A DNA stretch of 64,000 nt from an uncultured Methanosarcinales archaeon (GTDB lineage: Archaea; Nanobdellota; Nanobdellia; Woesearchaeales; ARS49). Both the position numbers and the translations under genes were made by a program. The stretch lies in the NCBI GenBank assembly GCA_964637115.1, contig CAZWVL010000004.1:9879-73878 (forward strand), in the 5' to 3' direction. Shown one piece after another: positions 5,488-22,135 of this stretch (position 1 is its first letter; every line of letters starts with the position of its first letter). The notes under the pieces are model-generated. The model worked only from the letters and a program-made list of their open reading frames with translations. It was not told the DNA's origin and ran no database searches.

Positions 5488-5489
5488 CT

Positions 5490-6566
5490 TTACTCTCCAG
5501 CAAACAATGTCTTTTTGCCGTTCTCAATCTTGTAAATCGGCACTGGTCTTGATGCGTCTCCGTTCGTATTAAAGTAAGAAGAACCTTGCAGCCATTGTCT
5601 TACTGTTTCAGTATCTGTCGTTCTTGTTTCTCTATAAGCCTGTGCTAACACCTTGACAGCCATATGAGCAGCGTCAGATGAAATGCCTGGCTCCTTGCCG
5701 TACTTTTCTGTGTACTTCTTTACGAATTCTTCATCGTATGGAAGCATGTCTATATAGTATGAAATCGCAAAATCATCTGTAGTAATCGCATTTCTTGTTA
5801 ATGCTTCACCAAAGTTGCCTTCTGCGTTGAGCAATATGGCATCAAACTGTTGCTCTTTCATTTTTTTTACTATGTGTGCGGTGTCAATCGGGCCAACTGC
5901 GAGAAAAACAACGTCTGGCTTGAGTGATTTTGCTTTGGTTACTTGTGTTGCGAAGTCATTGCCGTCAAATGCTGTGCCGACAAAGTCTGCAGTCAATTCT
6001 CCGCCGTTTTCTTTCATTAATCGTTCAAAATTTTCTTTGTATGAATCTGACCAGGACCCAGGGGCTCTGAAAATTACAGCATGCTTAATTTTTTCCTGTT
6101 TAATCACCAGTCTATACGCTCTGACATGATTTGGAACTGGTGGCCAGGTTCTGAATAAATACTGGCTTAAGCGGGAATTGTCTTTTGTATTTCCGGTTGA
6201 CGGGTTTATTAGTATTAATTTGGCAGCGTCAGCAATCGGAGCCATTGGTTCAAGCGAGTAGTCCCACGTACCGCCTATAATCGCGTCAATTTTGTCAATT
6301 TCCATCAGTTTTGTAAGTGCAGTAACCGCTCTTTTTCCGTCCGTGCCGTCGTCTTCGTAAATAACAACAATTTTCTTGCCATTTATGCCTCCTGCAGCAT
6401 TTATTTCTTCTACGGCAAGGTCCATTCCGTTTCTCGAGCTTTCACCATAGAATGCTGCAACGCCTGTTAAGCTCAAAACTGCGCCTATCTTGATTTGTTC
6501 GCTTTGCTGAGGCGTGCAAGCTGCTAAAAGCAGCAAAGCTGCTAAAAGAACAAAAAATCCTTTCAT
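5490..6566 (-). CDS. ABC transporter substrate-binding lipoprotein, LivK family (paralog 4)
   Basis: MKGFFVLLAALLLLAAC lipobox; IGAVLSLTGVAAFYGE; EINAAGGINGKKIVV. Start trimmed to the internal ATG. Confidence 0.85.
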   Translation of the reverse strand: MKGFFVLLAALLLLAACTPQQSEQIKIGAVLSLTGVAAFYGESSRNGMDLAVEEINAAGGINGKKIVVIYEDDGTDGKRAVTALTKLMEIDKIDAIIGGTWDYSLEPMAPIADAAKLILINPSTGNTKDNSRLSQYLFRTWPPVPNHVRAYRLVIKQEKIKHAVIFRAPGSWSDSYKENFERLMKENGGELTADFVGTAFDGNDFATQVTKAKSLKPDVVFLAVGPIDTAHIVKKMKEQQFDAILLNAEGNFGEALTRNAITTDDFAISYYIDMLPYDEEFVKKYTEKYGKEPGISSDAAHMAVKVLAQAYRETRTTDTETVRQWLQGSSYFNTNGDASRPVPIYKIENGKKTLFAGE

Positions 6567-6567
6567 T

Positions 6568-7650
6568 TTAATCTTCCAGCGGAACAAATCCGCCATTCTT
6601 GACCTGCATCAGTATGAGCGGTCTGTCAACATCGCCTTTTGAATCAAAGCTGAACGTTCCGCTGACTCCATTGTAGTTCTGCGTTGCGTACAGCTGTTGT
6701 TTTATGCAGTCGGTATCATCGTTGCATTGCTCAACGATTTTTGATATCAATTTCAACGCATCATACGCATTGGCTACAAACCACGAGAAGTTCGGATCGT
6801 TGTACACGTTTGCATATTTCTGCTTGAATTCTTGTGCTTGCTGCGTGCCGGGATTAAATCCTGACGTGTAGACTATTCCTTCTCCTGCGCCTTGGGCAGC
6901 AGTTAAGAATGCTTTATCCTCCATTGCTGGTGTTGTCAAGAATGGTCCTGTATATCCCATTTCTCGGGCGATTTTCAGGTTAATCCCTATGTCTTTTGCA
7001 AATCCTGACGTATAGATGACTTCAGGTTTGGAATCGATTACTTTGCTAATCTGGGTGCGTGCATCGCCTGAGTCTTTGTCATATAGCTCTTGTGCGACAA
7101 GTGTTCCTCCTAATTCTTGGTAGCGTGTGGCAAATGGATTCGCATAAGCAAGCGGCCCTTCTGCATTTGCATTTAGCATTGCTGCTTTTTTCCAGCCTTT
7201 TGAAATGGCATATTCAGCCATTGTTTTGCCATGGCCAGTCGCTGTTTCACGGTTTCTGAATGTGTAATCGCCTGCATCGGTAATCTTTCCTGTAACTGCA
7301 GTTGAGCTCAAAATTATGACTTTCTTTTGTTCTGCAAGTGGCGCGACTGCAAGAACTGAGCCTGAAAGGACAGGGCCGATGATTATCTTCACTCCGTCAA
7401 CATCAGTGAGCTTGTTGAACGCAGTAACTGCTACTTTTGTGTCGCTCTGCTCATCTTCGAATATAACGTCGACGTTGCTGACTTCTTTGAGCGCGAGATT
7501 GATTCCTTTGGTAATTCCTTCTCCATAATTTCCTTGCGCGCCGGTTAACGTCAAAATAATGCCGACTTTGACTTTTTCTGTTGGTTGTTCAACTTGTACG
7601 CATGCGCCCAAAAGCAACAATGCTAATATGACAAAGATTATTTTTTTCAT
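6568..7650 (-). CDS. ABC transporter substrate-binding lipoprotein, LivK family (paralog 5, most diverged)
   Basis: MKKIIFVILALLLLGAC lipobox; VGIILTLTGAQGNYGE. Confidence 0.8.
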   Translation of the reverse strand: MKKIIFVILALLLLGACVQVEQPTEKVKVGIILTLTGAQGNYGEGITKGINLALKEVSNVDVIFEDEQSDTKVAVTAFNKLTDVDGVKIIIGPVLSGSVLAVAPLAEQKKVIILSSTAVTGKITDAGDYTFRNRETATGHGKTMAEYAISKGWKKAAMLNANAEGPLAYANPFATRYQELGGTLVAQELYDKDSGDARTQISKVIDSKPEVIYTSGFAKDIGINLKIAREMGYTGPFLTTPAMEDKAFLTAAQGAGEGIVYTSGFNPGTQQAQEFKQKYANVYNDPNFSWFVANAYDALKLISKIVEQCNDDTDCIKQQLYATQNYNGVSGTFSFDSKGDVDRPLILMQVKNGGFVPLED

Positions 7651-7651
7651 T

Positions 7652-8770
7652 TTATACCTCCACGTTTACCCATTTACCTTCGTTGTACTGAACAATACGA
7701 ATGGGACGAGTGGCATAATGATTACCGTCGAATGCCACGTGTCCTGCAACACCAGTGTAATCGGTTTCTGCGAGCTTGTCGCGTACGCATTCCTTGGTTA
7801 TTTCAGTGCACTTGCCTGCCGCAATAGAAATCTCGTGCATATTATCATAGGCGACTGCTGCGTCTACAGGACCGACAAGTTTTTTGCCAATGCGTGTTTC
7901 AATTTTCTGCATAAATTCAGCGAGTTTTGGTGTTGGCTGTGCTGGGTTGGCTGCTTGGTCTGCGGCATAAGCGTCTTTGAGAATGCGGTTTTTGTCCAGG
8001 TCCTTGACTGCCATTGGGTTTGCAGATAATGCAGTGCCGATGGGCAGGTATAATTGTGGAACAAAGTCCAGCTCAAGCATTTGTTTGTAAATCATGTTGC
8101 AGTCTGGGGGCCAGCAGACAAGAACAACAGCATCTGGTTGTATGCTCTTGAACTTGGTGACAGAAGTTCGCGCATCAGGGTCATTGCTGAGCTTCATTTC
8201 ATTTGCAACAATAGTACCGCCCTTTGTGACAAATTCTTTTTTGAGTGTTTCAAGACAGTCTGCGCTGAAGTCAGCGTCATTTCCGAGGAAGGCAAGGCGT
8301 TTGTGGCCGTTTTTCAGTGCCGTTTGTCCTAATTGTTTGCATTCATTTGCAGCATCACGCAAATCGCTAAATATCCAGGTGTTCTTTCTCGCATAGGTTG
8401 GGACACCAGTAAACCCGAACAATGGGACTGCATTTTGTTCCGCTACTGCGCTTGCGCCGCCTGTAACAGGCGTTGTTATCGAATAGATAAAGTCGACGCC
8501 ATCCTGCTGTATTAGTTTTGTAGTCGCAGTAGTGCCTTTTGCAGCATTATCTGCATCTTCTAGAATGGTTTGAATCTGCCTGCCGTTGATGCCGCCTGCT
8601 GCATTGATTTCTTCCTTTGCCATTTCAAGGGCTGAAACGACATATTCGCCAATCCAGGCATTTGGCCCGGTCATGGGCGCCACAATGCCGACTTTGTATG
8701 GCTGTGATTCTGTTTGTACGCACGCTGCCAAAAGCAGCAGCGTCAAAATTATCATTATTGTTTGTTTCAT
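7652..8770 (-). CDS. ABC transporter substrate-binding lipoprotein, LivK family (paralog 6)
   Basis: MKQTIMIILTLLLLAAC lipobox; VGIVAPMTGPNAWIGE; EINAAGGINGRQIQ. Confidence 0.85.
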   Translation of the reverse strand: MKQTIMIILTLLLLAACVQTESQPYKVGIVAPMTGPNAWIGEYVVSALEMAKEEINAAGGINGRQIQTILEDADNAAKGTTATTKLIQQDGVDFIYSITTPVTGGASAVAEQNAVPLFGFTGVPTYARKNTWIFSDLRDAANECKQLGQTALKNGHKRLAFLGNDADFSADCLETLKKEFVTKGGTIVANEMKLSNDPDARTSVTKFKSIQPDAVVLVCWPPDCNMIYKQMLELDFVPQLYLPIGTALSANPMAVKDLDKNRILKDAYAADQAANPAQPTPKLAEFMQKIETRIGKKLVGPVDAAVAYDNMHEISIAAGKCTEITKECVRDKLAETDYTGVAGHVAFDGNHYATRPIRIVQYNEGKWVNVEV

Positions 8771-8779
8771 TTTTCCACC

Positions 8780-9820
8780 TCAAAACTCCTTCTTCCACTC
8801 GAGCATGACAGCATGGCTGTCATCCCAGTGATTTGTAATTGGATTTTCGTTCAGATCTGCTTTGTACCAGATACGCAATCCGCTGTTGCCGAGCTCAAAT
8901 CGTAAACCGAGCATTGCACCATTGGTATCAGTTGCAAAGTTTCTTCGATATTCGATGCTCGGCGTAATGTCATTCAAGAATGCAAAGTCACCTATGTTGA
9001 GTGCGCCGCGGATTGATGCTTTTTTATCATGGGTGTAGGTTGCATCAATGCCGTAATCTCCTGTATCTTTGTCTACATAAATTTCGGCGTTGCCGAAGCT
9101 GAATGTTTTGAAGGATAATGGGAATGTTAAATCGCCCAAGACGCTAAGGGTGTTATGGTCCTCGTCATCAACGCCGAACACTTTTGCACGTTGTGCCCAC
9201 TGCTTTGAGCCGAGAGTAATACGGGCTTCTCTGAAATCGTTTTTACCGATTTTAATGTAGCTCCAGAGTGCTGCACCGTCTAATTTCAAGCTGTATGAAG
9301 CGTTTGCTTCCCAGTTGTTTCCGTTGTTAATATGTCCACCGGCGTATACTAAAGAGTCTCCAATTTCTGCTGTTAGCACACCGCTGGAATTGCCTTTGCT
9401 GTCAAATGCTGCTTCTAAGCCGAAATTGTCATCAAGTTTTAATCCGCCGAGCCAGATTACTTTGTGTTCATTGTTTTCTCTGTCTAACACATCAAATTCC
9501 AGTCCTGCAAATCCTTGTTTGGTATTGTATGAGAGGTATGCTTTGCCTTGGTCTAATGTTGCAGTATCGCGCCAGCCGAGATTAAGCCTGAAATTATCAT
9601 AGTAAAGGTCTGCACCTATTGCGGAATTGTCCTTGGAAGTTTCACCCATGACTTTGTTTCCTGCATACGAAACAATAGTCTGAGCTGCTTCATCGTGCCA
9701 TGTTTCTGCGTATACGCGTGTTTCCATTTTGACTGGTTTCACGTCCTGCGCAAACGCTCCAGTATAGAGCGCCAGCGCGGAGAGTGATGTCATCACTGCA
9801 TGTTTGAGTCTCTGTAACAT
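8780..9820 (-). CDS. secreted beta-rich protein with bacterial outer-membrane beta-barrel (porin-like) character
   Basis: Signal peptide MLQRLKHAVMTSLSALALYTGAFA|QD. About 320 aa of alternating-hydrophobic amphipathic strands with G, Y, N and D in the turns. The C-terminus is ...AVMLEWKKEF (terminal aromatic). It is the first gene of the minus-strand SBP operon. The tool ORF uses GTG at 9829. Confidence 0.5.
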   Translation of the reverse strand: MLQRLKHAVMTSLSALALYTGAFAQDVKPVKMETRVYAETWHDEAAQTIVSYAGNKVMGETSKDNSAIGADLYYDNFRLNLGWRDTATLDQGKAYLSYNTKQGFAGLEFDVLDRENNEHKVIWLGGLKLDDNFGLEAAFDSKGNSSGVLTAEIGDSLVYAGGHINNGNNWEANASYSLKLDGAALWSYIKIGKNDFREARITLGSKQWAQRAKVFGVDDEDHNTLSVLGDLTFPLSFKTFSFGNAEIYVDKDTGDYGIDATYTHDKKASIRGALNIGDFAFLNDITPSIEYRRNFATDTNGAMLGLRFELGNSGLRIWYKADLNENPITNHWDDSHAVMLEWKKEF

Positions 9821-9880
9821 TTCCACCACCTATGTTCAGTAGTGACATGAAACTAATTTATACTTTTTTATTAAACTATA

Positions 9881-9948: not shown

Positions 9949-10860
9949 ATGAAAAGAAAAGTTGTCCGGCAGGGCGCGGCGACATTAATGGTCTCCCTGC
10001 CAAGCAAGTGGGCGCATAAAGTGCACCTGAAGAAAGGCGATGAGATTGACATAGAGGAATCCAACGGCAATCTAGTGATTTCCAAGGAAAAAGTTGAGAC
10101 CAAAAAGCAGACCACTATCAACATTTCCAGTTATTCAGAATCTTCTATCCGTGTGGCGCTGTGGAACACGTACCGCGCAGGTTACAGCCGCATTGTTGTT
10201 AATTTTTCTGATGAAAAACAGTACAAAATTGTGAAGGACGTAATTAAAAATTACGTCGTTGGCTTTGATGTTACTAAGAAAGAGAAGAATTCGTGCATTG
10301 TTGAAAATATCACAGAGCCCGCAGAAGAACAATTTGACGTTCTTTTCAGGAAAATCCTGTATAATATCTCTTTGTTAATCAACATTACTGAAGAACGGCT
10401 GAGAAATAAGCAAACGAGCGACAATTATAATGAAATTGTACTGAAAATCCACCAATATGACAACTTTTGTCGTCGGGTGATTGCGAAAAGGAATTTGTCC
10501 GGCAGTGAGGCATATTTGTTATGGTCATTCCTCACGTTGCTAATTCACGGACAGAGAGAACTGTACCATTTAAACAGGTACTTAGATAAGAACAAGGTAA
10601 AATTCACGAATTTTGAATTTTATGGCAAATTGAGAAAAATATTTGATTTATTGAACGAAGGATACGTCAAAAAAGACTTATCAAAATTTGAAAAGATTCA
10701 TGAATTGGAAAAAGATATCCTATATCAGGAATTTTATGGTTTGATTCAGAAAAATCAGAAAGAGAATATAGTGCTTTATCACATTGCTGCTGCAATAAGA
10801 CAGTTTTATTTGTCAGTAAGTCCTTTAGTGGGTCTATTATTGGAATCCAATAAGTCGTAG
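9949..10860 (+). CDS. AbrB/SpoVT-domain plus PhoU-like domain regulator (paralog 1 of 3)
   Basis: N-terminus MKRKVVRQGAATLMVSLPSKWAHKVHLKKGDEIDIEE (AbrB swapped-hairpin pattern) followed by a helical ~250-aa domain. Its 3' end overlaps the convergent kinase gene by 55 nt. The tool start at 9931 is TTG. Confidence 0.6.
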   Translation: MKRKVVRQGAATLMVSLPSKWAHKVHLKKGDEIDIEESNGNLVISKEKVETKKQTTINISSYSESSIRVALWNTYRAGYSRIVVNFSDEKQYKIVKDVIKNYVVGFDVTKKEKNSCIVENITEPAEEQFDVLFRKILYNISLLINITEERLRNKQTSDNYNEIVLKIHQYDNFCRRVIAKRNLSGSEAYLLWSFLTLLIHGQRELYHLNRYLDKNKVKFTNFEFYGKLRKIFDLLNEGYVKKDLSKFEKIHELEKDILYQEFYGLIQKNQKENIVLYHIAAAIRQFYLSVSPLVGLLLESNKS

Positions 10861-12566
10861 TGAATTCTTCCTTCATTGTCAGTTATGTGATACAATGCGA
10901 TTGCCCTGTTAATCAGGTTCCTTTTCGTTCCTGAAAGGAACTCTGAATAGCCTGATATTTCTTGGCCGTTTTTATTTGTTTTAGAATAATTCAGACTGTT
11001 TGCTTTTTTGCGTGCTTCAAATAATTCTTCTTTGTCACAGAAATATTCTGCACTGACATCAGCAAGTGTTTTATTGGTTCCAAGTTGATTTTTTAAATAC
11101 AATATTGCATAGAAACGGTATCTGAATTCATCAGGAGTGGTTTTATCATTAAATTTATTCACAAAATCATTCGGCACTAAAACTGAATTTGTGCGCATTT
11201 CTTTGTACTCATCTTGTTTTAATTTTTCGTCTTCCATGAGAGCGCTGCGCATTATTGAATAACATAAGCGCTTGCTCATTCTCCTCATATCCATTGTATT
11301 GTCAAGTGGGTCTGCAAATATTCCTTTTTTCGCCTCTTTTAACGGATTTTCTTGTTCCTTGATTTGCTTGAAATAGGGAATAAACTGTTCTGCAATGTCA
11401 GAATTTTGTAAAAGATAGTCTAATCCGCTGTCAGGATATATTCCTGTCCTTAAGGTTTCGTGTATTGCAGGTTCTTTGAATCGGTCTGCTTTTTCTTGAA
11501 TCTGCATTAATTTAAGGCCGCCAAAAATACCGGTTATAATACCAGCAATAGTTGTAAAACCTACTGCATATTTCCTGATTTTTTGCCACGGAACAATGCG
11601 CCTGTTGACAGCATCTTCAAAGTCTCCTTCGAAATTAAAATGTGCCATATTATCAATATACTTCGGATGTTGGACACTGAGGCAATTGCGGAGCATTTTT
11701 CTGTATTGTCGTGGAACAAGGGCGAGGCGTTTTTCCAGAGCAGCGTCGTGTTCATCAAGATTGACATTTGCTATTTGCTTGCCATCCTGTTTAAGTGTTG
11801 CTTTGAGTATCTTTCCATCGACGAAAATTGGTGTTCCATCTTCATCAGCTACCAATTCAATTTTAAATAGCGGTTCTCCGGTTAAAGCATAGAACATTGT
11901 TGCACCTAATGCATAAAACTCGCTTTGTATTGTTGCCTTGGCTTCTTTTTTGTCAAGGAGTGCATTGAGTATGTTTGGCGCAGTAAATTGTGTTCCACCT
12001 CTGGTCGGCAGGAATGATTCTGTAATGTCTCCGATTTTACCTGCTGTCTGCAGGTCTGAAAGCTTGGCGCTCTCATCACGTATTCCAATGAGTATATTTG
12101 ATGGCTTGATGTCTCTGTGCAAAAGGCCTTCGCGCCAGTGTAAATGTTTCAAGCCTGCTGCAACTTGAGAGAATATGTATTTGAACTTCTCTGGTTCGTT
12201 TATTTTACCAAATCGAACACGTTGCTCTAACGAAATGGCTTCATAATATTCTTCAACTGTGATTGTCTTGTCGCCCGTCTTGAACGCATCATTAATCTCT
12301 ACAATGTTCGGATGCTTGACTTTGTTCAGTGCTAGGACTTCGCGTTCATCCAGGTCACCTTTTGAGCGGTTAATGGCTGTCGTGATTGAATTCTCATCAA
12401 TGTGCTCTTTGGGAATCTTGACCACACGGACCTTTTCCACGCTGCCGTGCTTGTAAAGTGCTTCGTAAACGTCTCTGGTGTGGCCTTCTCCAAGTTTGCG
12501 AATTATCGTATACCCGTTTTCCTTGAGTAATTGCTCTACTTTAGAGTCGAGTTTAGTTGCTGCCAT
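10806..12566 (-). CDS. Hanks-type Ser/Thr protein kinase, single-pass membrane, with a ~230-aa C-terminal domain beyond the TM
   Basis: GEGHTRDVY...VVK (VAIK-like), catalytic loop HRDIKPSNILI, then one TM segment YAVGFTTIAGIITGIFGGLKL. Confidence 0.85.
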   Translation of the reverse strand: MAATKLDSKVEQLLKENGYTIIRKLGEGHTRDVYEALYKHGSVEKVRVVKIPKEHIDENSITTAINRSKGDLDEREVLALNKVKHPNIVEINDAFKTGDKTITVEEYYEAISLEQRVRFGKINEPEKFKYIFSQVAAGLKHLHWREGLLHRDIKPSNILIGIRDESAKLSDLQTAGKIGDITESFLPTRGGTQFTAPNILNALLDKKEAKATIQSEFYALGATMFYALTGEPLFKIELVADEDGTPIFVDGKILKATLKQDGKQIANVNLDEHDAALEKRLALVPRQYRKMLRNCLSVQHPKYIDNMAHFNFEGDFEDAVNRRIVPWQKIRKYAVGFTTIAGIITGIFGGLKLMQIQEKADRFKEPAIHETLRTGIYPDSGLDYLLQNSDIAEQFIPYFKQIKEQENPLKEAKKGIFADPLDNTMDMRRMSKRLCYSIMRSALMEDEKLKQDEYKEMRTNSVLVPNDFVNKFNDKTTPDEFRYRFYAILYLKNQLGTNKTLADVSAEYFCDKEELFEARKKANSLNYSKTNKNGQEISGYSEFLSGTKRNLINRAIALYHITDNEGRIHYDLLDSNNRPTKGLTDK

Positions 12567-12699
12567 CGTTCTCCTTCAGAAGCTTGTTTACGGCAAATTC
12601 TACAAAATGAGACTTGTTGCGAAAAGCCCCGTTTTGTAGTTTTTCCTCTACCTGCTTGATGGTATTCTCGTCTATGGATATGCTGACTTTGACCTTCAT
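12553..12699 (-). CDS. small ribbon-helix-helix (CopG/Arc-like) DNA-binding protein, 48 aa, overlapping the kinase start
   Basis: Hand-translated: MKVKVSISIDENTIKQVEEKLQNGAFRNKSHFVEFAVNKLLKENDGSN, a strand-helix-helix pattern. Its stop lies 11 nt inside the kinase ORF (ATGGCAGCAACTAA). It is below the 60-aa cutoff of the ORF track. Confidence 0.45.
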   Translation of the reverse strand: MKVKVSISIDENTIKQVEEKLQNGAFRNKSHFVEFAVNKLLKENDGSN

Positions 12700-12795
12700 A
12701 CGGGGTAGTAAGAATTGCCACCTTTATAAACCTTTCTCTTTTTAGCCACTATCAAGTGGTAACATTTATATACAGGTTATACATAACCTATCCAT
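12700..12795. promoter_or_regulatory. divergent promoter/operator region between the RHH-kinase and AbrB-like-kinase operons
   Basis: TATA-like TTTATAAA (~12723) and TTTATATA (~12766). Perfect palindromes CCACT-atca-AGTGG (~12744) and AGGTTAT-ac-ATAACCT (~12774). Confidence 0.45.
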
Positions 12796-12939
12796 ATGAA
12801 ACAGTTCATAATCACCAAGAAGATTGCCAAGCACGGCTCTCAGGCTATTATTGTAGTTCCGAGAGTTCTTGAATCTTATCTAAAGCCAAAGACGTTGGTA
12901 AAATTGACGATTGACGTGTTGGAGGAGCCAGATGAATAA
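12796..12939 (+). CDS. small AbrB/MazE-like protein, 47 aa
   Basis: Hand-translated: MKQFIITKKIAKHGSQAIIVVPRVLESYLKPKTLVKLTIDVLEEPDE. HGSQAIIVVPRVL fits the AbrB/MazE looped-hinge hairpin. Its stop overlaps the ATG of the next ORF (ATGAATAA). Confidence 0.4.
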   Translation: MKQFIITKKIAKHGSQAIIVVPRVLESYLKPKTLVKLTIDVLEEPDE

Positions 12940-13456
12940 TCCTCTAACTATTGACTTCAAACTGCAAAGAGAACATTTTGGTCAACTAATTGATATTGAC
13001 AGAATTGTTTTCCGGCAAGAACCTCATCCTAATCAGGTTGCAATAGCAGAGAGGCGACCTGAATTGTACACGGTTATCAGACGCGGAGACCATGTTGTTG
13101 GCTATGGTTTAGTTTTGCCATTGCGAAAAGCTGCGTTAACGGCTTTGAAAGAAGGAAAAATATGGGAAGATGAACTAAACATCGGCTGTCTAACCGACCG
13201 GTTGCCAGCTGGCTTTTACATTTCTTCAATTGCTGCAATACAAGATGCTTCTGAACGAGAGCGCGCAATGATTGTTGGAAGCACAGTCAGCCCTCCATTC
13301 CGCACACCTTTTGAAACAATTGCAATTCCTATTTCAGAAGCTGGTAACAGAATTTGTAGAAATCTGCTTCGTATGATTCCTGTACGAGCACGCACCGAAG
13401 TGAAAGGAATCGATGGCTATACGCCGACAACATACCAGCGTGGAGGAGCCAAATGA
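12932..13456 (+). CDS. hypothetical protein (174 aa), possibly an acyl-CoA N-acyltransferase-like fold
   Basis: ORF in an operon between the AbrB-like ORF and the APH-like kinase; its stop overlaps the kinase ATG (ATGA). The tool start at 12911 is TTG. The fold call is weak. Confidence 0.4.
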   Translation: MNNPLTIDFKLQREHFGQLIDIDRIVFRQEPHPNQVAIAERRPELYTVIRRGDHVVGYGLVLPLRKAALTALKEGKIWEDELNIGCLTDRLPAGFYISSIAAIQDASERERAMIVGSTVSPPFRTPFETIAIPISEAGNRICRNLLRMIPVRARTEVKGIDGYTPTTYQRGGAK

Positions 13457-15648
13457 AACCGCTTGAACTCCAGCTGAAAGAAATTCTTGGTGTTAAGGAA
13501 TACAACCGTTTTGCAGATACTGTGCTTTTCCCTGCTATCGAGCAGCTTGCTGAGAGCGGAAAGCTGAGCAATTCTGATCTTGCCAAATTGGCTAAATTGA
13601 CAAAGACCTATGGAGCAGGAATTTTTGACGTTGCCGCTTCAGACGTGGGAGAGGCAACCAAGCATAATCTGTCAGACGGCTTCTCAATTATTGCAAAATA
13701 CAAGTTGAATGAGGATTTGGAATTCAATCTGTTCGTGAAGAAATTCAGCGACAAAAAAAGCTTTGACCGGGGTGTTCTCATACAGGAAGAAATTGCGCAG
13801 CATTTGAGAAACACTGATTTGGCAGGCGTCGTTCCAGAACAGCTATATAAAAACCGGGGCAAGCGCATTGTTGTTATGCCGCTGGTCGAGGCAAAATCAC
13901 TCAATGCCGTCTTGCCTGAATCGAAAGACAAGGAAGAATTGCTTAGAAAAACAATAACAGAATATTTGAAAATAACTGATCATATTGGAGCTAAAAAAGT
14001 CTTTGTGCCTCCAAAAAGAAACGCCCTCGGAAAACTCTGGTATGATGATTTCAAACTGCCTTCATTGCAGAATTTCGACAGATTTTTTGCAAAGGGCTTT
14101 GGTGCTGATGAAAAAATTACAGAAAGCTACAAGCAGCACATAGGCAGCCGTTTGAACGGAAATACAGGCGATTTCATCCACGGTGATTTGCACCCAGGCA
14201 ACATTCTGATTAATGACAAGACCCATTTCATAGACTGGGAGCTGGCCGCAAATGGTTTTACTGAATTTGACCTTTACAAATTGTTCACAAAATCCAATGT
14301 GTCTGATGACCTCGAAGACCGTTTGCTTGCATATACTGTTATGACTAAGGAAAAACTGCGTGCAAAGCGCGAAAACAGGCAGCCAGCCAGCGCTGACACG
14401 CACAGATTGCTATTTGAAGCATCTAAGACACGATACAGGTTAAATCAGATTACTCAGGACTTGTTGACTGCTGAACGCTACAACAAGAATGCGCAAAAAG
14501 ATGTAAAACGCCACGACAAACTTGAAAAAATGGCATTAACTGCCTATAATATTGCCCTGCGCCATATAGAAAAAGCTGAAAGTGAGGGAATTCTCAGTGC
14601 TGATTTCAGGCTGACAATTGAAGATTTTGTACAAAAGAACAAGCCATATAACCGTATTAATAATGTTGAATTCGCTCAATTATTGAGCGTATATAATCCT
14701 CACACAACTCTTTCACAGGATAATCTTGTTTCGCACGGCACTGAAATAGGAGCGCCCGTTGACAAAGAATCCAAGCAAAAGAATTTAGAAATTATAAGGA
14801 AGAGTTTGCACAAGAAGGATTGGGGCAAGATTGCAAAACTTGGAATAGCTGCAGCAGTGTTGCTCTGTAGTGCAAGTTATGGTGGACGGAAGTATTTGGA
14901 GAGTGAACTTGCAAGAATAAAACTCGAGGAAAAGGCTAAACAGGAAGACGCCGATAGTTGGTTTAGAAATGATTTCTGCAAAATTTACGAGACGCGTATT
15001 GAGGCTGAGCTGCATGGTGGAAAGATTCGATGGGCTTATACAGAAGCTGACAAGAGACCGTTGGGAAAAGTGCGGTTAATCGAAGATCGTGAGTTGATCA
15101 AAAATACCTGTGACAAGTATAATCTTGACTTACAATTTACCAGGAGAATGTATAAGATAAATGCTGCTTTTGCTAACGTTGAAAATAATAAAATGAGTGA
15201 TAGAGGCATAAATTTCCTTGATCCATATAGATTCGTATATACCAAAGGTTCTGAGGCTGATCATTATGATCCAGTAATCAATCTTGAATTTGGTGCAAAA
15301 AGATTATCGCGATTGTTTGATAAGTATAAAGTGGATAGAAATATGATTAAAAATGGGCATCATGTCAATAATGGCAACGATGCAATAAAGAATAATGATT
15401 CTTCTTTACAACCATTGATTCGGGCATTAAAACAGTTTTATACCTTTCAAAAGAATTATACCGAAGATGAGGAAGATAAAAGATATGAAGAGCAGCTAAG
15501 CGATGATAAAAAATATAATAAAAAGCTTGCACGTGGCGTACGTGAAATCATATACGCCTTGTTGACAAATGGTCCCCAATCTGATTTTAATGGTGATATT
15601 GTATACTTGGAACAATCAGGAATTCCTGACAATTTCATGCGAGAGTAA
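13453..15648 (+). CDS. membrane-anchored APH/choline-kinase-like protein kinase-fold protein (731 aa)
   Basis: Catalytic motif HGDLHPGNILI and IDWE (APH/CAK family), one TM segment (IAKLGIAAAVLLCSASYGG), and a ~250-aa C-terminal domain. Confidence 0.7.
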   Translation: MKPLELQLKEILGVKEYNRFADTVLFPAIEQLAESGKLSNSDLAKLAKLTKTYGAGIFDVAASDVGEATKHNLSDGFSIIAKYKLNEDLEFNLFVKKFSDKKSFDRGVLIQEEIAQHLRNTDLAGVVPEQLYKNRGKRIVVMPLVEAKSLNAVLPESKDKEELLRKTITEYLKITDHIGAKKVFVPPKRNALGKLWYDDFKLPSLQNFDRFFAKGFGADEKITESYKQHIGSRLNGNTGDFIHGDLHPGNILINDKTHFIDWELAANGFTEFDLYKLFTKSNVSDDLEDRLLAYTVMTKEKLRAKRENRQPASADTHRLLFEASKTRYRLNQITQDLLTAERYNKNAQKDVKRHDKLEKMALTAYNIALRHIEKAESEGILSADFRLTIEDFVQKNKPYNRINNVEFAQLLSVYNPHTTLSQDNLVSHGTEIGAPVDKESKQKNLEIIRKSLHKKDWGKIAKLGIAAAVLLCSASYGGRKYLESELARIKLEEKAKQEDADSWFRNDFCKIYETRIEAELHGGKIRWAYTEADKRPLGKVRLIEDRELIKNTCDKYNLDLQFTRRMYKINAAFANVENNKMSDRGINFLDPYRFVYTKGSEADHYDPVINLEFGAKRLSRLFDKYKVDRNMIKNGHHVNNGNDAIKNNDSSLQPLIRALKQFYTFQKNYTEDEEDKRYEEQLSDDKKYNKKLARGVREIIYALLTNGPQSDFNGDIVYLEQSGIPDNFMRE

Positions 15649-16537
15649 GCGTTTGCCCCATCATTCTTACTATTAATTCTGTCATCTCCCGCAAAAAGCG
15701 CAGGACATATGTCTCCTTTGCCGATTTAGTGCTGTTTAGTTTTCTATCGATTTCAAAAGCAATGCTGTCACGCTCTTTTGCGAGTGCAGCTGCTGCTTCA
15801 TACGAGAATTCATAGAATAATCCTTCAAATTTCTTGAAAAGGCGCTGTATTCGGTCATAGAGGGCAATTACCGATGATTCTAATACAACCTTGTTTTTGG
15901 TGATATAGCCGGTCAGCAGCTTGTATTCGTCGCCAAGCTGCTCAAGAAGCATAACAACAGCATACATGACTGGAGTCTTCGAATATTCCGGATACCCATA
16001 TTTGTTTAGAATACGAAAACAATGGTCCGTTACCCTGTTTATGTTGGCTTCCATATCCTCAAGATAGGCGAGGTCTGTTTCTTTTCGTTTTAAGGTTTGA
16101 AGGCTTTCGTCAGCTACGGCGCTTATCATGAAAAATACCCGCCGAAGTATTGGGTCGAATGCGTTTTCAGACACACCCGAAATATCTTTGATGATAAGAT
16201 AATTTTTGCCTTGCTGGATTACTTCCATTCCTATCATTTCCCTGACGCGCTGCTGAATGAGTCTTGCCTTGTTTAACGAGTCAAACTTCACTTCCAGTTC
16301 ATCAACGCCTTCCAAGTATTTTGCAGCAACAATTCTTTTGAGCAAATTGTCAAGCTTGCTTAGATCAATGGTCTCCCGCATATGCTTGGGAACGGTTGGC
16401 GGGGTCATTACAAGCGTCGTATCTTTCTCTTCCAGTTCTATTTCATCACCCGCTTTCAGATTAAGCTTCTTTGTCCACTTGGCAGGCAGTGAAATAGTCA
16501 GTGTTGCCGCTCCCTGCTTGATTATCTTGCGTCGCAT
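15635..16537 (-). CDS. AbrB/SpoVT-domain plus PhoU-like domain regulator (paralog 2 of 3)
   Basis: MRRKIIKQGAATLTISLPAKWTKKLNLKAGDEIELEE. Its 3' end overlaps the convergent APH-like kinase by 14 nt. The tool start at 16558 is TTG. Confidence 0.6.
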   Translation of the reverse strand: MRRKIIKQGAATLTISLPAKWTKKLNLKAGDEIELEEKDTTLVMTPPTVPKHMRETIDLSKLDNLLKRIVAAKYLEGVDELEVKFDSLNKARLIQQRVREMIGMEVIQQGKNYLIIKDISGVSENAFDPILRRVFFMISAVADESLQTLKRKETDLAYLEDMEANINRVTDHCFRILNKYGYPEYSKTPVMYAVVMLLEQLGDEYKLLTGYITKNKVVLESSVIALYDRIQRLFKKFEGLFYEFSYEAAAALAKERDSIAFEIDRKLNSTKSAKETYVLRFLREMTELIVRMMGQTLTLA

Positions 16538-16594
16538 ATCGTCGATAGTCGCTTTCAAGTATATAAATTTTGCCTTTAGAATATAAGAATATGC

Positions 16595-16674: not shown

Positions 16675-17094
16675 ATGAACAAAAGAAACGATAACGGTCA
16701 TGTCAAATATTCACCGGATGCTTCATTAGTTAACAAGCTCAAGGTTGGAGATCATTATACTGAGATTTGGCAAGGTTTGCCCGATCACCCATTCGAGCCT
16801 TCTGCAACAACAGGTGGCAAGTCAGGCTTAAAGTATGAAACAAATGATAAATACGTCTGGGTTACGCCAAATACTGCTCGTGCACTGGAACAAAATCCGG
16901 ATGAAATTCTGTATGCCAGTATTAAGAAATCTAAAGACAAAGAGTATTGCGCCAGATGGGTAGAATCCATCAGCGGAACTTCCTTTGGAAATACTCTTGA
17001 AAGTGCTATTTCTCGAGCTCAAGAACTGAATATCGAAGAGTTACATAACAGAATCGAGAAGGATCGAAGAAAGAAATTGGAGGCCAAAAAATGA
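16675..17094 (+). CDS. hypothetical protein (~139 aa) leading the plus-strand SBP operon
   Basis: ORF whose stop overlaps the ATG of the following SBP gene (ATGA). The tool start is TTG at 16663. Confidence 0.4.
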   Translation: MNKRNDNGHVKYSPDASLVNKLKVGDHYTEIWQGLPDHPFEPSATTGGKSGLKYETNDKYVWVTPNTARALEQNPDEILYASIKKSKDKEYCARWVESISGTSFGNTLESAISRAQELNIEELHNRIEKDRRKKLEAKK

Positions 17095-18176
17095 AAACAG
17101 CAATAATTGCAATTCTAGTGCTGTTTCTAGCAGCATGCGTGCAAATAGAAGAAACAAAGCCATTCAAATTAGGTGCACCACTGCCTTTGACTGGCTCAAA
17201 TGCGTTCTATGGCGACTTTACAAAGTATGGTATAGAGCTTGCTGTTGAAGACATTAACAAAGCAGGCGGAATCAATGGTAGAACAGTCCAGGTTATCTAT
17301 GAAGATACTGCTGGAGATAAGACAAAAGCCACAACCGCGGCACAGAAGCTGATTCACATCGATGGTGTGGACGCTCTTATTACCTCCACGACTCCGATGA
17401 GCGGTGCGATTTCTCCGGTTGCTGAAGAGAACCGCATTCCGTTAATTTATGCTTCTGCAACAAATTCATTCACTATAAACAAAACGTATGTTTTCAAAGA
17501 TTATACAGATGCAGCCGGCATCTGTGAGCTTCTGATGAAACAGGTGAAAAAGGATGGGCATGAAAAAGTGGCCGTCTTTGGTACTGATGCTGAATTTACT
17601 CAGCTTTGTAAGAAAGGAGCAGAAAAAGTTGGAAAACTCAACTCATTTGAGGTTTATCCTGGCGGCGAAACTGATTTCAAAACACAGTTTGCCAAGATTA
17701 AGAATGCTGAAAACACTGCTTTGATTCTTTCGGTGTTCGCTGGAGATTGCCCGCATGCGTACAAGCAGATTCGCGAACTTGGGTTGAAGGCAAAATTGTA
17801 CACAGCTTTCCAGAGTTTTGCGTGCGGCAGTGCCGACAACACAAAAGCAAATGCCGACTTGCTTGAGGGCGCATATGGTGCTGATGTTGCTTTAGATGAA
17901 GAAAGCGATGATCCTGATTTTCTCGCTTTTAAGAAGCGCCTTGATGAAAGAGGCTGGACTACGCAAATTCGCGGAAGCGCCATTATGTACGATAGCACAA
18001 TGGAATTCGCAAAAGCCTTCCAGGATTGCCAAGATGCTCTTTGTGTAGCCAATAATCTCAGAGCTCTGCAGATGAATGGAATTTCTGGACACATCAGTTA
18101 TGGTGGAGACCAGATTGTTGAGCGCGAAATAATGTTGGTGAAATACGAAAACGGCAAATGGAGGAAAGTACAATGA
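17091..18176 (+). CDS. ABC transporter substrate-binding lipoprotein, LivK family (paralog 7)
   Basis: MKTAIIAILVLFLAAC lipobox; LGAPLPLTGSNAFYGD; DINKAGGINGRTVQV. It is the closest paralog to 4399..5487. Confidence 0.85.
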   Translation: MKTAIIAILVLFLAACVQIEETKPFKLGAPLPLTGSNAFYGDFTKYGIELAVEDINKAGGINGRTVQVIYEDTAGDKTKATTAAQKLIHIDGVDALITSTTPMSGAISPVAEENRIPLIYASATNSFTINKTYVFKDYTDAAGICELLMKQVKKDGHEKVAVFGTDAEFTQLCKKGAEKVGKLNSFEVYPGGETDFKTQFAKIKNAENTALILSVFAGDCPHAYKQIRELGLKAKLYTAFQSFACGSADNTKANADLLEGAYGADVALDEESDDPDFLAFKKRLDERGWTTQIRGSAIMYDSTMEFAKAFQDCQDALCVANNLRALQMNGISGHISYGGDQIVEREIMLVKYENGKWRKVQ

Positions 18177-19267
18177 AAACGGCAATATTCACAATAATTG
18201 CATTGCTGCTTTTGGCAGCGTGCGCAACGCAAGAATCAGTACAAACAACGCCTATTGCAAAAGAACCGGCAGTTGTCAAGATTGGGGTAACAGTGCCATT
18301 GACTGGTGATGTTGCATTCTTAGGAGAAGCAACGCGAAATTCCCTCGAATTGGCATTAAAAGAAGTGCAGGGAACAAAATACAAGTACGAGCTTGTGTTT
18401 GAAGATGACAAGCTTGATGCAAAACTGGCTTCCACAACTGCAACTAAATTGATTCAAGTTGACAATGTTGATGCAATCATCAGTTTGAGCTCTGGCACGG
18501 GGAATGTAGTTACCCCTCTTGCCGAGCAGAATAAGGTAATTCACTTTGGCATTGCTTCTGATGCAAATGTTGCAAAAGGAATGTTCAATTTCATCCATTG
18601 GACGCCGCCTGATGAGGAAGCTCGTTTATGGGTGCAAAAAGCACAGGAACATGGCTATAATCGCGTCGCAATTATTGTATTGCAGCATCCAGGTGCAATA
18701 GCAGTGGTTGATGCTGCAAAGAAACACGCAAAAGGTACCGACATCGAACTACATGAGGAGTTCTTTAATCCGGGCGAGAAGGATTTCAGAACAGTTCTGG
18801 TCAGGTCCAAGCAATTTAATCCTGATGCTTATATGCTCATGGCGTTCTCTCCTGAACTTGACATATTGCACAAGCAGTTGAAGGAATTAGGCATTAAGGC
18901 ACCTTTGACATCCATCGAGGCATTCGAACTTAGCAATGACCCTTCTCAGTTTGAAGGTCACTGGTATGTCAACGCTGCAGACCCGACAGGCGCATTTGCT
19001 GACAAGTATAAGGCTGCGTACAACAAAGAGCCGGTATTTGGCGGACCAAATGCATACGACATCTTCAAGATGATCGTGAAAGGCTTTGAGGATTCAGGCA
19101 AAGATGCATCTGTAAAACCTTCACCTGAAGAAGTTGCTGCTGCACTTATGCAGATAAAGGACTTCGATGGTGCACTGGGCAAATTGACTGTCGGCGAAGA
19201 TGGTATTGTCTGGAGCCCGGCAGTTGTCAGAACGATTCTGAACGGCAAGCCGGTGACTATCAAATAG
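18173..19267 (+). CDS. ABC transporter substrate-binding lipoprotein, LivK family (paralog 8)
   Basis: MKTAIFTIIALLLLAAC lipobox; IGVTVPLTGDVAFLGE. ATGA overlap with the preceding SBP gene. Confidence 0.85.
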   Translation: MKTAIFTIIALLLLAACATQESVQTTPIAKEPAVVKIGVTVPLTGDVAFLGEATRNSLELALKEVQGTKYKYELVFEDDKLDAKLASTTATKLIQVDNVDAIISLSSGTGNVVTPLAEQNKVIHFGIASDANVAKGMFNFIHWTPPDEEARLWVQKAQEHGYNRVAIIVLQHPGAIAVVDAAKKHAKGTDIELHEEFFNPGEKDFRTVLVRSKQFNPDAYMLMAFSPELDILHKQLKELGIKAPLTSIEAFELSNDPSQFEGHWYVNAADPTGAFADKYKAAYNKEPVFGGPNAYDIFKMIVKGFEDSGKDASVKPSPEEVAAALMQIKDFDGALGKLTVGEDGIVWSPAVVRTILNGKPVTIK

Positions 19268-19725: not shown

Positions 19726-20598
19726 ATGGGCATCGCAACGCAGTTAATATTGAACGGTATCATTGCGGGCGCCATATACGCGTTGGTTGCGTCTGGGTTC
19801 TCATTAATCTACTCTGTTACCAAATTTATGCATTTGGCGCACGGTGGAGTGTTGGCGTTAGGCGCCTATCTTATGTACACTTTCGCTGTTGCAAGTGGAT
19901 TGAACTTCTGGTTTGCCATTCTGCTGACATTAATCTGCAGCAGCGTTGCAGGAGAATTGATGAATTGGTTGGTCTACAAGCCTTTGAGAAAACGTAAGGC
20001 TTCTGGTGCAGTATTATTAATAGCAAGCATTGCTGTATTAATATTCGTTAACTCGTTGATTCTCGCCGTCTGGGGTGCTGATGTGAAGACCATTCACACC
20101 AGAAACCCTGTTTTTGACTTTATTGGTGCCAGAATCACTTTTATTCAAGTCACAATCATTATTGTCTCTGTAATTCTTCTTTTATGCTTGTGGTATTTGA
20201 TGAAAAAAACAAAATTGGGCAAGGCAATGCGTGCTGTTGCTGACAACAAGGATGTTGCGCAGACTGTTGGCATTAATCCAGAGAGAATTTACACATATAC
20301 TTTCCTTATTGGCAGTTTTTTGGCTGGTGTTGCCGGAATTCTTATTGGAATCGAACAGAATTTGTTTCCAACAATGGGCCTTTCATTAGTTATTAAGGGA
20401 TTTACTGGTGCAGTTATTGGCTCTTTGGCATCTGTTCCTGGCGCAGTATTGGGCTCATTCATTCTTGGTCTGGTGGAAAACATCGGCATCTGGTGGCTTC
20501 CGTCTGGTTACAAGGATGCAATTGCCTTCGTATTATTGTTCATTTTCCTCTTATTCAGGCCTTCCGGCCTATTGGGCGTTAAAGTGAGGGAGGCTTAA
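19726..20598 (+). CDS. livH: branched-chain amino acid ABC transporter permease (LivH-like)
   Basis: Polytopic membrane protein with LivH/BPD-transport-2 topology. It sits in the operon order permease, permease, ATPase, ATPase. Confidence 0.85.
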   Translation: MGIATQLILNGIIAGAIYALVASGFSLIYSVTKFMHLAHGGVLALGAYLMYTFAVASGLNFWFAILLTLICSSVAGELMNWLVYKPLRKRKASGAVLLIASIAVLIFVNSLILAVWGADVKTIHTRNPVFDFIGARITFIQVTIIIVSVILLLCLWYLMKKTKLGKAMRAVADNKDVAQTVGINPERIYTYTFLIGSFLAGVAGILIGIEQNLFPTMGLSLVIKGFTGAVIGSLASVPGAVLGSFILGLVENIGIWWLPSGYKDAIAFVLLFIFLLFRPSGLLGVKVREA

Positions 20599-21455
20599 TG
20601 GCATTTGTAAATTATCTGATTCATCTTGGAATTTTGGCGGCAATTTATAGTATTCTCACAATTAGTTTGAACTGGGCTGTTGGTTTTACTGGCTTGCTTA
20701 ATCTTGGCCATGTTGGATTTTTTGGTATCGGCGCTTATGTGAGCGCTCTATTAGCTATTAATGGTGTCCCTGTCTGGATTAGTATTATTATTGGCGGTCT
20801 TGCAGGCTTGATTGCTGGTTTCTTGCTTTCCCTGCCTACTTCAAGGTTGAAAGGTGATTATCTTGCTCTGGCAACGCTTGGTTTTTCGTTTATCATGGGA
20901 AGTATTGCAAGAAACTGGACTGATGTTACAAGAGGCGCGTTAGGTATTCCTGGCATTCCTAAGATTGTGAGAGGTAATACAGAGTTTCTCGTCGTTGTTT
21001 TGATTGTTGCAGTTATTACTTATTTCATCTTCTGGAAATTATCGCGTTCAAGATTTGGAAAGACGTGTGAAGCAGTTAGAGATGACGAATTGGCTGCAAG
21101 AATGCTTGGAAAAAATACTTTTATGACGAAAATTATGGCTTTGGGCATTAGTGCGTTTTTTGCCGGCATTGCTGGAGGTTTATTTGCGCATTACATTACT
21201 TTTATCGACCCGTCTATTTTCGGTATTGATGACTTGATTTTACTTTTCAGCATGTTGATTGTGGGCGGTCTTGCCAGTGTGAAAGGCGCTGCTTTCGGCA
21301 CGATTATTATTTTCTTGATTCCTGAGCCTTTGCGCTTTATCGGCTTCCCCAGTTCTGTGCTTGGTCCAATGCGTGCAATTATCTACGCGTTAATCTTGTT
21401 ATTAATCCTTATCTATAAGCCAAGAGGCTTATTTGGGAAGGTGGATTTGGCATGA
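20598..21455 (+). CDS. livM: branched-chain amino acid ABC transporter permease (LivM-like)
   Basis: Second polytopic permease; ATGA-style overlap with the previous gene. Confidence 0.85.
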   Translation: MAFVNYLIHLGILAAIYSILTISLNWAVGFTGLLNLGHVGFFGIGAYVSALLAINGVPVWISIIIGGLAGLIAGFLLSLPTSRLKGDYLALATLGFSFIMGSIARNWTDVTRGALGIPGIPKIVRGNTEFLVVVLIVAVITYFIFWKLSRSRFGKTCEAVRDDELAARMLGKNTFMTKIMALGISAFFAGIAGGLFAHYITFIDPSIFGIDDLILLFSMLIVGGLASVKGAAFGTIIIFLIPEPLRFIGFPSSVLGPMRAIIYALILLLILIYKPRGLFGKVDLA

Positions 21456-22135
21456 TTAGCGTGCAAAAATTGGACAAACATTTTGGTGGAGTTTATGCAG
21501 TTCATAATTGCAGCTTCACAGTTAAAGACAATACAATCACGAGTATTATCGGCCCGAACGGCGCCGGTAAAACAACGTTGTTCAATCTTATCTGTGGCAT
21601 TATCAAGCCGGATGCTGGCAGCATTTTCTTGAAGGGCCAGGAGATTACTGACCTTCCAACATACCGCATTGCTCGTTCTGGTATTAGCAGAACGTTCCAA
21701 CAGGCAAGATTGTTCAAAAATATGTCAGTAAAGGACAATTTGTTGTTAGCAAAGCAGACAACCGATGCAGAATTAAAGGAAATACTAAAAAAAGTGCGTT
21801 TTCCTCTTGATATAAACACAAAAGCAAGCGAACTGAGCTACGGCCAAACGAGATTAGTGGAAATTGCTAGAGCATTACTTAAACCTCACAAATTATTAAT
21901 GCTTGACGAGCCTACTGCTGGCGTGAATCCAAAAGTCCGCCAGGAATTGAAAGAAATTCTTCTAAATCTCAAAAAGGAAGGCAATACTATTGTGCTGATC
22001 GAGCACGATATGGAATTCGTGATGAGTATTAGTGATGATGTTATTGTGATGACAGAAGGTACTGTGTTGACAAGAGGAACGCCTAAACAAGTTCAATCTG
22101 ACAAGCGTGTTTTGGAGGCATATCTAGGCAAATGA
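21452..22135 (+). CDS. livG: ABC transporter ATP-binding protein (LivG-like)
   Basis: Walker A GPNGAGKTT, signature LSYGQTRLVEIARAL, Walker B LLMLDEP. Confidence 0.85.
   Translation: MISVQKLDKHFGGVYAVHNCSFTVKDNTITSIIGPNGAGKTTLFNLICGIIKPDAGSIFLKGQEITDLPTYRIARSGISRTFQQARLFKNMSVKDNLLLAKQTTDAELKEILKKVRFPLDINTKASELSYGQTRLVEIARALLKPHKLLMLDEPTAGVNPKVRQELKEILLNLKKEGNTIVLIEHDMEFVMSISDDVIVMTEGTVLTRGTPKQVQSDKRVLEAYLGK

Follow-up and report, generated by a model that had tools for sequence, protein, structure and literature searches.

The 64-kb window analysed here, a stretch of 64,000 nucleotides from an uncultured archaeon (contig CAZWVL010000004.1), encodes three regulators that combine an AbrB/MazE-type N-terminal domain with a PhoU-like helical bundle, and each of them lies beside a gene for a membrane-anchored kinase-fold protein. 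We refer to the regulators as A1, A2 and A3 and to the kinases as K1, K2 and K3, giving the pairs A1/K1, K2/A2 and K3/A3. The reading that we favour, with a probability of roughly 0.55, is that each pair represents a conserved signalling module of DPANN archaea, in which a membrane kinase and an AbrB-PhoU regulator would act directly in one pathway. Close homologues of the proteins of the window are found in Woesearchaeota/Nanoarchaeota (DPANN) metagenome-assembled genomes.

All six open reading frames (ORFs) of the pairs are present where the original prediction, a note made from the letters of the window, had placed them, and independent gene calls on an identical public contig reproduce the same genes and the same overlaps. 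A1 (9949..10860, plus strand) and K1 (10806..12566, minus strand) are convergent, with a 3′ overlap of 55 nucleotides (10806..10860). K2 (13453..15648, plus) and A2 (15635..16537, minus) are likewise convergent and overlap by 14 nucleotides (15635..15648), and K3 (59418..61190, minus) and A3 (61317..62219, plus) are divergent, with a spacer of 126 nucleotides; this is the geometry that had been predicted. The paralogy of the three regulators was also confirmed, at 27-31% identity over most of their length (31% for A3 versus A2), and there is no fourth AbrB-PhoU copy in the window. The probability that three of three regulators would be paired with a kinase gene by chance among the 70 genes present is about 1.4e-4.

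To look beyond the window, a pattern scan of one genome per GTDB species was performed, which returned 221 relatives; the best 80 loci were taken with 10-kb flanks, and their genes were called uniformly. The pattern was derived from an alignment of nine sequences; an 18-sequence alignment contained no stretch that was conserved enough. The 80 loci come from DPANN-type genomes, some of which carry other labels, for example Methanosarcinales or Euryarchaeota. A positional screen, using an iterative hidden Markov model (HMM) search with jackhmmer seeded with the three kinase domains, was applied equally to all 1416 genes. We see kinase-like genes directly downstream (+1) of AbrB-PhoU in 22 of 87 non-window cases (25%), with 6/79 (8%) at +2 and 8/71 (11%) at +3, compared to 5 of the 1204 genes that lie upstream or beyond +3 (about 0.4%; Fisher p = 7e-23 versus +1). 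Across genomes, the p values for enrichment range from 1e-17 to 1e-22. Pfam assignments agree with the screen, as Pkinase (10) and APH (10) are the commonest families among 86 downstream neighbours (20/86), and in a random set of 150 genes, taken from four or more positions away, each has fewer than two members (p = 4e-8 even if two are allowed for).

A union count was then assembled by adding partners with TPR and APH domains, from per-protein Pfam scans, and a partner family of about 1000 residues, from profile-profile comparison. A kinase-fold gene is found at +1 of 29 of 88 AbrB-PhoU genes and within +1 to +3 of 37 of 88, in all cases on the opposite strand, and no kinase-fold gene lies within three genes upstream of any of the 88. 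The expectation that kinases would be enriched beside AbrB-PhoU genes elsewhere, on which the original prediction had rested its own refuting test, is thus strongly borne out as to enrichment, with the proviso that only about a third to two-fifths of these genes in the clade are kinase-paired. The orientation of the neighbours is also unusual: the downstream neighbour is on the opposite strand for 71 of 90 AbrB-PhoU genes, where the rate over all adjacent gene pairs of these loci would predict about 41% (binomial p = 4e-13), and the 3′ ends overlap in 62% of convergent AbrB-PhoU pairs compared to 37% of other convergent pairs (p = 0.002).

The pairing is seen again when the search starts from the kinase. 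Four orthologues of K3 were located (35-60% identity), three of which have an AbrB-PhoU gene immediately divergent and an Lrp/AsnC gene immediately downstream, as in the window, and in the fourth case K3, AbrB-PhoU and Lrp/AsnC all lie within about 3 kb. When the K3 family motif was used to scan metagenomes, 40 loci were obtained, in which, by hand count, about 16 of some 24 informative close relatives adjoin an AbrB-PhoU gene; the more distant APH relatives in the same scan (family-HMM E > 1e-20) have no AbrB-PhoU neighbour. Two gene orders recur, “... 160+ ABR- K3+ Lrp+” in L086, L087, L089, L090 and the window, and “... 169+ K3+ ABR- Lrp+” in ten other loci with the same flanking synteny. 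The divergent A3/K3 arrangement is kept down to 35% K3 identity. As the K3 family retains its adjacency while switching between divergent and convergent order, 3′ overlap is not essential to the pairing, and antisense overlap as an essential feature was rejected on these grounds. Together with the enrichment at +1 in the 80 other DPANN loci, the reciprocal search supports the earlier claim that the arrangement reflects a functional partnership and not chance.

The Lrp/AsnC-family regulator directly downstream of K3 (58821..59291, minus; HTH_24 and AsnC_trans_reg) is a third conserved member of the K3/A3 neighbourhood. It was identified by Pfam after the K3 orthologues in L086, L087 and L089, and a gene of matching size and position is found in L090, L097, L098, L102, L103 and L107. 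More widely, an Lrp/AsnC gene is the divergent upstream neighbour of 18 of 82 AbrB-PhoU genes, versus 2 of 150 in the background, largely independently of the presence of a kinase. The gene order K3, Lrp, ..., Amidase_3 is kept in L086, L087 and L088 (Pfam), and the same gene-size pattern is found in L089 and L090.

There is considerable variety in the kinase that fills the slot beside AbrB-PhoU genes, which may be a Pkinase, an APH protein with a transmembrane segment, a TPR+APH protein, or a member of the APH-like family of about 1000 residues. The occurrence of different kinase families in one slot suggests selection for a kinase in general and not for one gene. Within subgroups, regulator and partner remain associated: K2 orthologues are convergent with A2 orthologues in L001, L002, L003, L012 and L013, and a neighbour-joining tree built from 89 regulators contains an A2 clade (L001, L002, L003, L012 and the window) in which every partner is of K2 type. 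An A1 orthologue, L016_A16 (43% identity), is also convergent with a Pkinase gene, and its locus mirrors the four-gene layout of the window (A> <K K> <A), such that there are two pairs in L016 and three in the window; the pair is duplicated into several copies per genome. In one related regulator clade, close relatives pair with either Pkinase (L016, L019, L029) or APH (L015, L018). The regulators are better conserved than the kinases, with 60% identity for A2 versus L001_A and 36% for K2 versus L001_K, and K1 shares just 23-26% identity with either of the L016 kinases.

Some partner families could be assigned with less certainty. The family of about 1000 residues aligns to the K3 kinase domain with the catalytic motif in register (hhalign E = 1e-4, probability 58%), and a profile search of the PDB with this family was empty. 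A further family, which we call family X (448-676 residues, with no recognisable domain), occupies the +1 position in L040, L052, L057, L063, L068 and L070, and in five of these six loci a Pkinase gene lies two genes further downstream on the same strand. Its invariant residues K243, D286....N291, D329 and D341 resemble a kinase catalytic core, a likeness that is suggestive only, and neither hhalign nor a PDB profile search returned anything for it. The partner family of L035 and L041 likewise gave nothing by hhalign.

The regulators themselves are proteins of 303 (A1) and 300 (A2, A3) residues, in which the AbrB/MazE domain PF04014 is found at residues ~7-49 with scores of 29.8 bits in A1, 36.2 bits in A2 and 26.2 bits in A3, all above the gathering cut-off of 24.7 bits. 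The original prediction had called them PhoU-like, a name that stands as to fold and was not reached as to Pfam sequence family, since PF01895 (PhoU) gave no match at E <= 0.01 for A1, A2 or A3. More distant family members do carry PF01895, in some cases only faintly. A profile of 18 family members matches PhoU of P. aeruginosa (4q25) with E = 1.5e-6, and in this alignment the family motif LE.lgDEy falls on LERIGDE of PhoU; A2 and A3 keep the form LE.(L/I)(G/A)DEY. A direct sequence search of the PDB with A2 gave only noise (14-3-3 proteins at E ~0.6). The AlphaFold model of A2 (pLDDT 88) comprises an N-terminal beta domain, an alpha/beta domain at residues 54-118, and a bundle of six long helices at 124-299. 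When this model was compared to the PDB using Foldseek, the top 12 matches were all PhoU or PhoU-like proteins (probability 1.00, target TM-scores of 0.45-0.72), and MazE structures matched the N-terminus. Judging by the predicted structure, the AbrB-PhoU label is thus correct at the level of fold, though not by a sequence match to PF01895.

The family to which these regulators belong is large, numbering 6450 clusters at 50% identity (E <= 1e-3), and the best 150 of the 6450 representatives are all stand-alone proteins of 291-355 residues. Its counterpart in the literature is the archaeal ‘PhoU family’ of transcription factors, a recognised family with multiple paralogues, seven of which are listed in P. 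furiosus; T. kodakarensis TK2245 is tabulated among the proteins that mass spectrometry identified as chromosome-associated (PMC6316755, PMC7325993). These SpoVT/AbrB + PhoU factors, such as TK2245, share the domain architecture of A1-A3, and the same two papers report no ligand, partner, regulon or kinase association for them. In the literature searched there was likewise no ligand or partner for the archaeal AbrB-PhoU class, and no paper linking AbrB-PhoU proteins to kinases or describing kinase signalling in DPANN.

The three kinases differ in kind. K1 comprises a predicted Hanks-type Ser/Thr kinase domain (residues 1-330), a single transmembrane segment (about 336-354, weak), and a C-terminal domain of ~230 residues of unknown fold. 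It matches Pkinase (PF00069) with 112.4 bits against a cut-off of 31.7, carries the catalytic lysine in VVK, the motif HRDIKPSN, and the Asp equivalent to that of DFG in SDL, and is the only one of the three with the features of a Hanks-type kinase (PF00069). K2 has an APH-type kinase domain at about 60-340, a transmembrane segment at 460-478 and a C-terminal domain of ~250 residues. Its PF01636 score is 42.7 bits against a cut-off of 23.2, it contains HGDLHPGN and IDWE in agreement with the Brenner motif H.D.H..N and the downstream ID.E, and its best NCBIfam match is the model for SrkA/YihE-type Ser/Thr kinases, at a score far below the cut-off.

K3 differs from the other two in the order of its parts, as its transmembrane segment (57-75) precedes a helical-repeat region and a C-terminal domain of APH/choline-kinase fold (about 285-590), rather than following the kinase domain as in K1 and K2. 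K3 has no Pfam match of its own; PF01636 is present in 18 of 33 K3 homologues, and KDAHPENW and D463 are invariant across the family. The predicted structure of K3 (pLDDT 86) resembles APH(3')-Ia and choline/ethanolamine kinases with E about 1e-6, and has 115 PDB matches at E <= 1e-3. K3 is thus of APH type by modelled fold and motif only, its sequence falling below the Pfam threshold. Its true start is probably M9, at 61166, as MGL opens the family consensus and there is a TATA-like box right next to the start as annotated.

Hydropathy analysis predicts one transmembrane segment per kinase, and comparable segments recur in several orthologues, so the earlier description of the partners as membrane-anchored kinase-fold proteins is supported. 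From their sequences and models they are not one family, as one is classed as Hanks-type and two as APH-type, and BLASTP among K1, K2 and K3 gave no mutual detection. None of the six pair proteins contains a HisKA/HATPase_c or receiver domain.

If the pairs are indeed signalling modules, then one component would be a single-pass membrane-anchored kinase of the protein-kinase-like superfamily, of either Hanks or APH type, receiving an input through its non-catalytic part, that is, the C-terminal domain beyond the membrane segment or the helical-repeat region. The other would be a soluble regulator with an AbrB/MazE swapped-hairpin domain for DNA binding and, in addition, the PhoU-fold six-helix bundle. 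Most probably the kinase would then act on the regulator: it may do so by Ser/Thr phosphorylation, or its cytoplasmic domain may dock onto the PhoU-like bundle, and either action would alter DNA binding by the regulator and change the transcription of target genes. Domain architectures, intact catalytic motifs, paralogy and an adjacency conserved independently of orientation are what we observe directly; any contact between the proteins, any phosphorylation, the way in which control runs, the nature of the signal and the identity of the targets are inferred from these.

A direct link of this kind is plausible because it has two experimental precedents. In B. subtilis, three Hanks kinases (PrkC, PrkD and YabT) phosphorylate AbrB, and this modification inhibits the binding of AbrB to DNA (PMC4837961). 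The kinase PhoR is repressed by bacterial PhoU, which binds to the PAS domain of PhoR (PMC13577022, PMC9239213). The first system resembles the DPANN pairs in joining a membrane-anchored eukaryotic-like kinase to a swapped-hairpin DNA-binding protein. However, the Bacillus genes are unlinked and AbrB is a protein of 96 residues with no PhoU domain, whereas in DPANN a three-domain regulator is encoded next to the kinase in many genomes, some of the kinases are of APH type, and phosphorylation is suggested by analogy. That the DPANN regulator is specifically a phosphorylation substrate is a tentative proposal that we hold with low confidence. The PhoU-PhoR-PstB system similarly partners a PhoU-fold six-helix bundle with a membrane kinase (PMC13577022, PMC9239213, PMC4423584), but PhoR is a histidine kinase, and bacterial PhoU lacks a DNA-binding domain and is encoded in the pst operon. 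We found no histidine kinase, PAS domain or pst gene among the pair genes or their annotated neighbours. There is also a likeness to two-component systems, in which a membrane sensor kinase and a cytoplasmic DNA-binding effector are encoded side by side and have expanded as paralogous pairs; the pairs described here differ in the absence of HisKA/HATPase and receiver domains, in their kinase folds, and in being convergent and not co-transcribed.

Several observations weigh against a dedicated kinase-regulator module. The 80 loci are those most similar to A2 and not a random sample of the family, so the frequencies given above describe that part of the family. Even there, more than half of the sampled AbrB-PhoU genes have other convergent neighbours; partners with no kinase fold include inositol monophosphatase, pyruvate kinase, PfkB sugar kinase, PRTase/OMP decarboxylase, GatB, proteins of guanylate-kinase-like and radical-SAM type, and families in which no domain could be recognised. 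Three members of a subfamily of ~330-residue AbrB-PhoU proteins have no kinase nearby. The pairs are mostly convergent and hence not co-transcribed, so that a shared pathway cannot be argued, as it usually is, from a shared operon. No fusion of a kinase to an AbrB-PhoU gene was seen among 70 homologues and the best 150 of the 6450 representatives. A search for a Ser/Thr column enriched in the kinase-paired regulators yielded nothing significant (best p value 0.005, with about 300 columns compared), and the residues T12 and S16 are close to invariant in the regulators whatever the partner. Finally, protein-kinase activity is assumed for two of the three kinases, K2 and K3: the nearest solved structures to K3 are small-molecule kinases, and the best family for K2 is APH. 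Such hints of it as there are remain indirect, namely the sub-threshold SrkA/YihE-type match of K2 and the TPR repeats carried by relatives.

Four other explanations of the adjacency were weighed. The link might be one of transcription only, with the AbrB-PhoU protein regulating the neighbouring kinase gene locally, or with tail-to-tail antisense transcripts dampening each other, and no contact between the proteins. The excess of convergent neighbours and of overlapping 3′ ends fits this idea, as does the position of the first oligo-T run past the K1 stop, which by eye lies ~45 nucleotides further on, inside A1, so that the K1 and A1 transcripts probably overlap. We nonetheless consider it unlikely, as the K3 family is found adjacent in both convergent and divergent order, and as a local regulator would normally be divergent from or upstream of its target, not at its 3′ end some 2 kb from the promoter. 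Nor does it account for the repeated presence of unrelated kinase families, as opposed to other genes, in this slot. A connection through phosphate or phospho-metabolism would have the PhoU-like regulators sensing phosphate, metal or nucleotide status beside any phosphotransferase or phosphatase, with the APH-type proteins acting as small-molecule kinases on lipid head-groups, sugars or antibiotics. It draws on the aminoglycoside and choline kinases that are the nearest folds to K3, on the PhoU-like motif retained in A2 and A3, and on those partners that are phospho-enzymes (inositol monophosphatase (6), pyruvate kinase, PfkB sugar kinase, guanylate-kinase-like protein, PRTase/OMP decarboxylase). 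An inositol-monophosphatase-family gene, a second recurrent partner, is downstream of six AbrB-PhoU genes, five of them convergent (L024, L028, L036, L055 with two genes, and L065). The list of phospho-enzymes may be a selection effect, however, and there are bona fide Hanks-type protein kinases among the partners, namely K1 and at least 10 more. The membrane anchors, TPR repeats and large non-catalytic domains of the partners are typical of receptors, and no pst or pho genes, transporter genes included, were noted beside the pairs of the window or when the neighbours at other loci were surveyed. We therefore judge a purely metabolic connection to be rather improbable. As a separate observation, an inositol-monophosphatase-family gene also lies three genes upstream of one distant AbrB-PhoU homologue of ~330 residues.

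That the pairs work in the manner of a toxin-antitoxin system or in antiviral defence, an AbrB/MazE-fold protein neutralising a kinase effector (compare HipA and the defence Ser/Thr kinases), seems very unlikely to us, despite the MazE/AbrB antitoxin fold of the N-terminal domain, the matches of K1 to the PADLOC kinase models mad6 and PD-T4-6, and the tiny ORFs with RHH-like and AbrB-like character that precede the kinases. The PADLOC matches of K1 are confined to its generic kinase domain; K3 has a single marginal match (E = 0.0012), and there is none for A1-A3, for K2 or for the small ORFs. The genes of a pair are convergent or divergent and so not co-transcribed, and neither a known PADLOC defence system nor a type II toxin-antitoxin system could be recognised. 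In addition, the partners are membrane-bound and carry accessory domains of large size, the regulator is a three-domain protein of 300 residues from a family of more than 6000 clusters, and the pairs sit in chromosomal synteny that is conserved down to 35% identity and not in variable islands. Chance adjacency, or a by-product of genome compaction, has in its favour that DPANN genomes are compact and that 3′ overlap is common in them (37% of other convergent pairs). Its probability is negligible in view of the in-window figure and the cross-genome p values given above, and it is refuted by the positional profile, the union count and the reciprocal K3 search. The direct kinase-regulator module remains the reading that we prefer.

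The interval between K1 and K2 contains a divergent promoter region, with TATA-like boxes near 12724-12733 and 12764-12773, and three small ORFs. One of 48 residues (12553..12699, minus) is read with K1, whose start its stop codon overlaps, and is ribbon-helix-helix-like by a weak match to RHH_1 (E = 0.014). Two are read with K2: an ORF of 47 residues (12796..12939, plus), which heads the K2 operon, has an N-terminal pattern that looks AbrB-like by eye and gave no significant Pfam match, and an ORF of 174 residues (12932..13456, plus), which has no Pfam or PADLOC match. Start and stop codons overlap at each junction, the 174-residue ORF beginning within the 47-residue ORF and ending over the K2 start (ATGA), and from this overlap it is probably translationally coupled to K2. 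The 48- and 47-residue ORFs are both called as genes on the identical contig.

On both sides of the A1-K1-K2-A2 cluster there are Peripla_BP_6 substrate-binding genes of the branched-chain-amino-acid type, comprising six paralogues together with two permeases and two ATPases, in arrays at 4399..8770 (minus), 17091..19267 (plus) and 19726..22851 (plus) according to the gene table of the identical contig. A Peripla_BP_6 gene is the upstream neighbour of 5 of 80 AbrB-PhoU genes in other genomes. Between the first array and A1 lies a gene for a protein of 349 residues (8780..9829, minus) with a signal-peptide-like N-terminus, a beta-rich composition, the C-terminus ...EWKKEF, and no Pfam match. 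The terminal Phe recalls bacterial outer-membrane beta-barrels, which would be unexpected for a DPANN archaeon. Elsewhere in the window, a protein of 118 residues (57648..58004, minus) has, by eye, a class III signal peptide like that of archaeal type IV pilins (RRAQG/LPISTIIIAALGILVLVV), and an Amidase_3 protein is encoded further along the same strand (53644..54699, minus). Other genes encode an RFC-like AAA+ protein, a class I tRNA synthetase and a dolichyl-phosphate-mannose-type glycosyltransferase. The G+C content of the window is ~42%, and tRNA and Rfam scans of it gave no match.

The domains described here, and signalling from kinases to transcription factors, are already known; the conserved coupling of AbrB-PhoU regulators with Hanks- and APH-type membrane kinases in DPANN did not turn up in the literature searched. 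A more far-reaching proposal, which we regard as doubtful, is that these pairs are the principal transmembrane signalling system of Woesearchaeota-type DPANN, taking the place of two-component systems, with the PhoU-like bundle as a docking or phospho-accepting ‘receiver’ and the Hanks and APH kinases as interchangeable transmitters. If this were true, then some APH-family enzymes would be protein kinases acting on transcription factors. Should the APH-type members act on the regulator, the known range of substrates for the APH/choline-kinase family would widen. The significance of the pairing draws entirely on gene neighbourhood and comparative genomics. DPANN archaea are uncultured or grown in co-culture and have tiny genomes, and we know of no described DPANN signalling pathway. 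For these organisms, a conserved and repeatedly duplicated pair would be a concrete candidate for how they sense their surroundings or hosts, and for the large archaeal AbrB-PhoU class, with more than 6000 clusters at 50% identity, it would provide a first functional handle.

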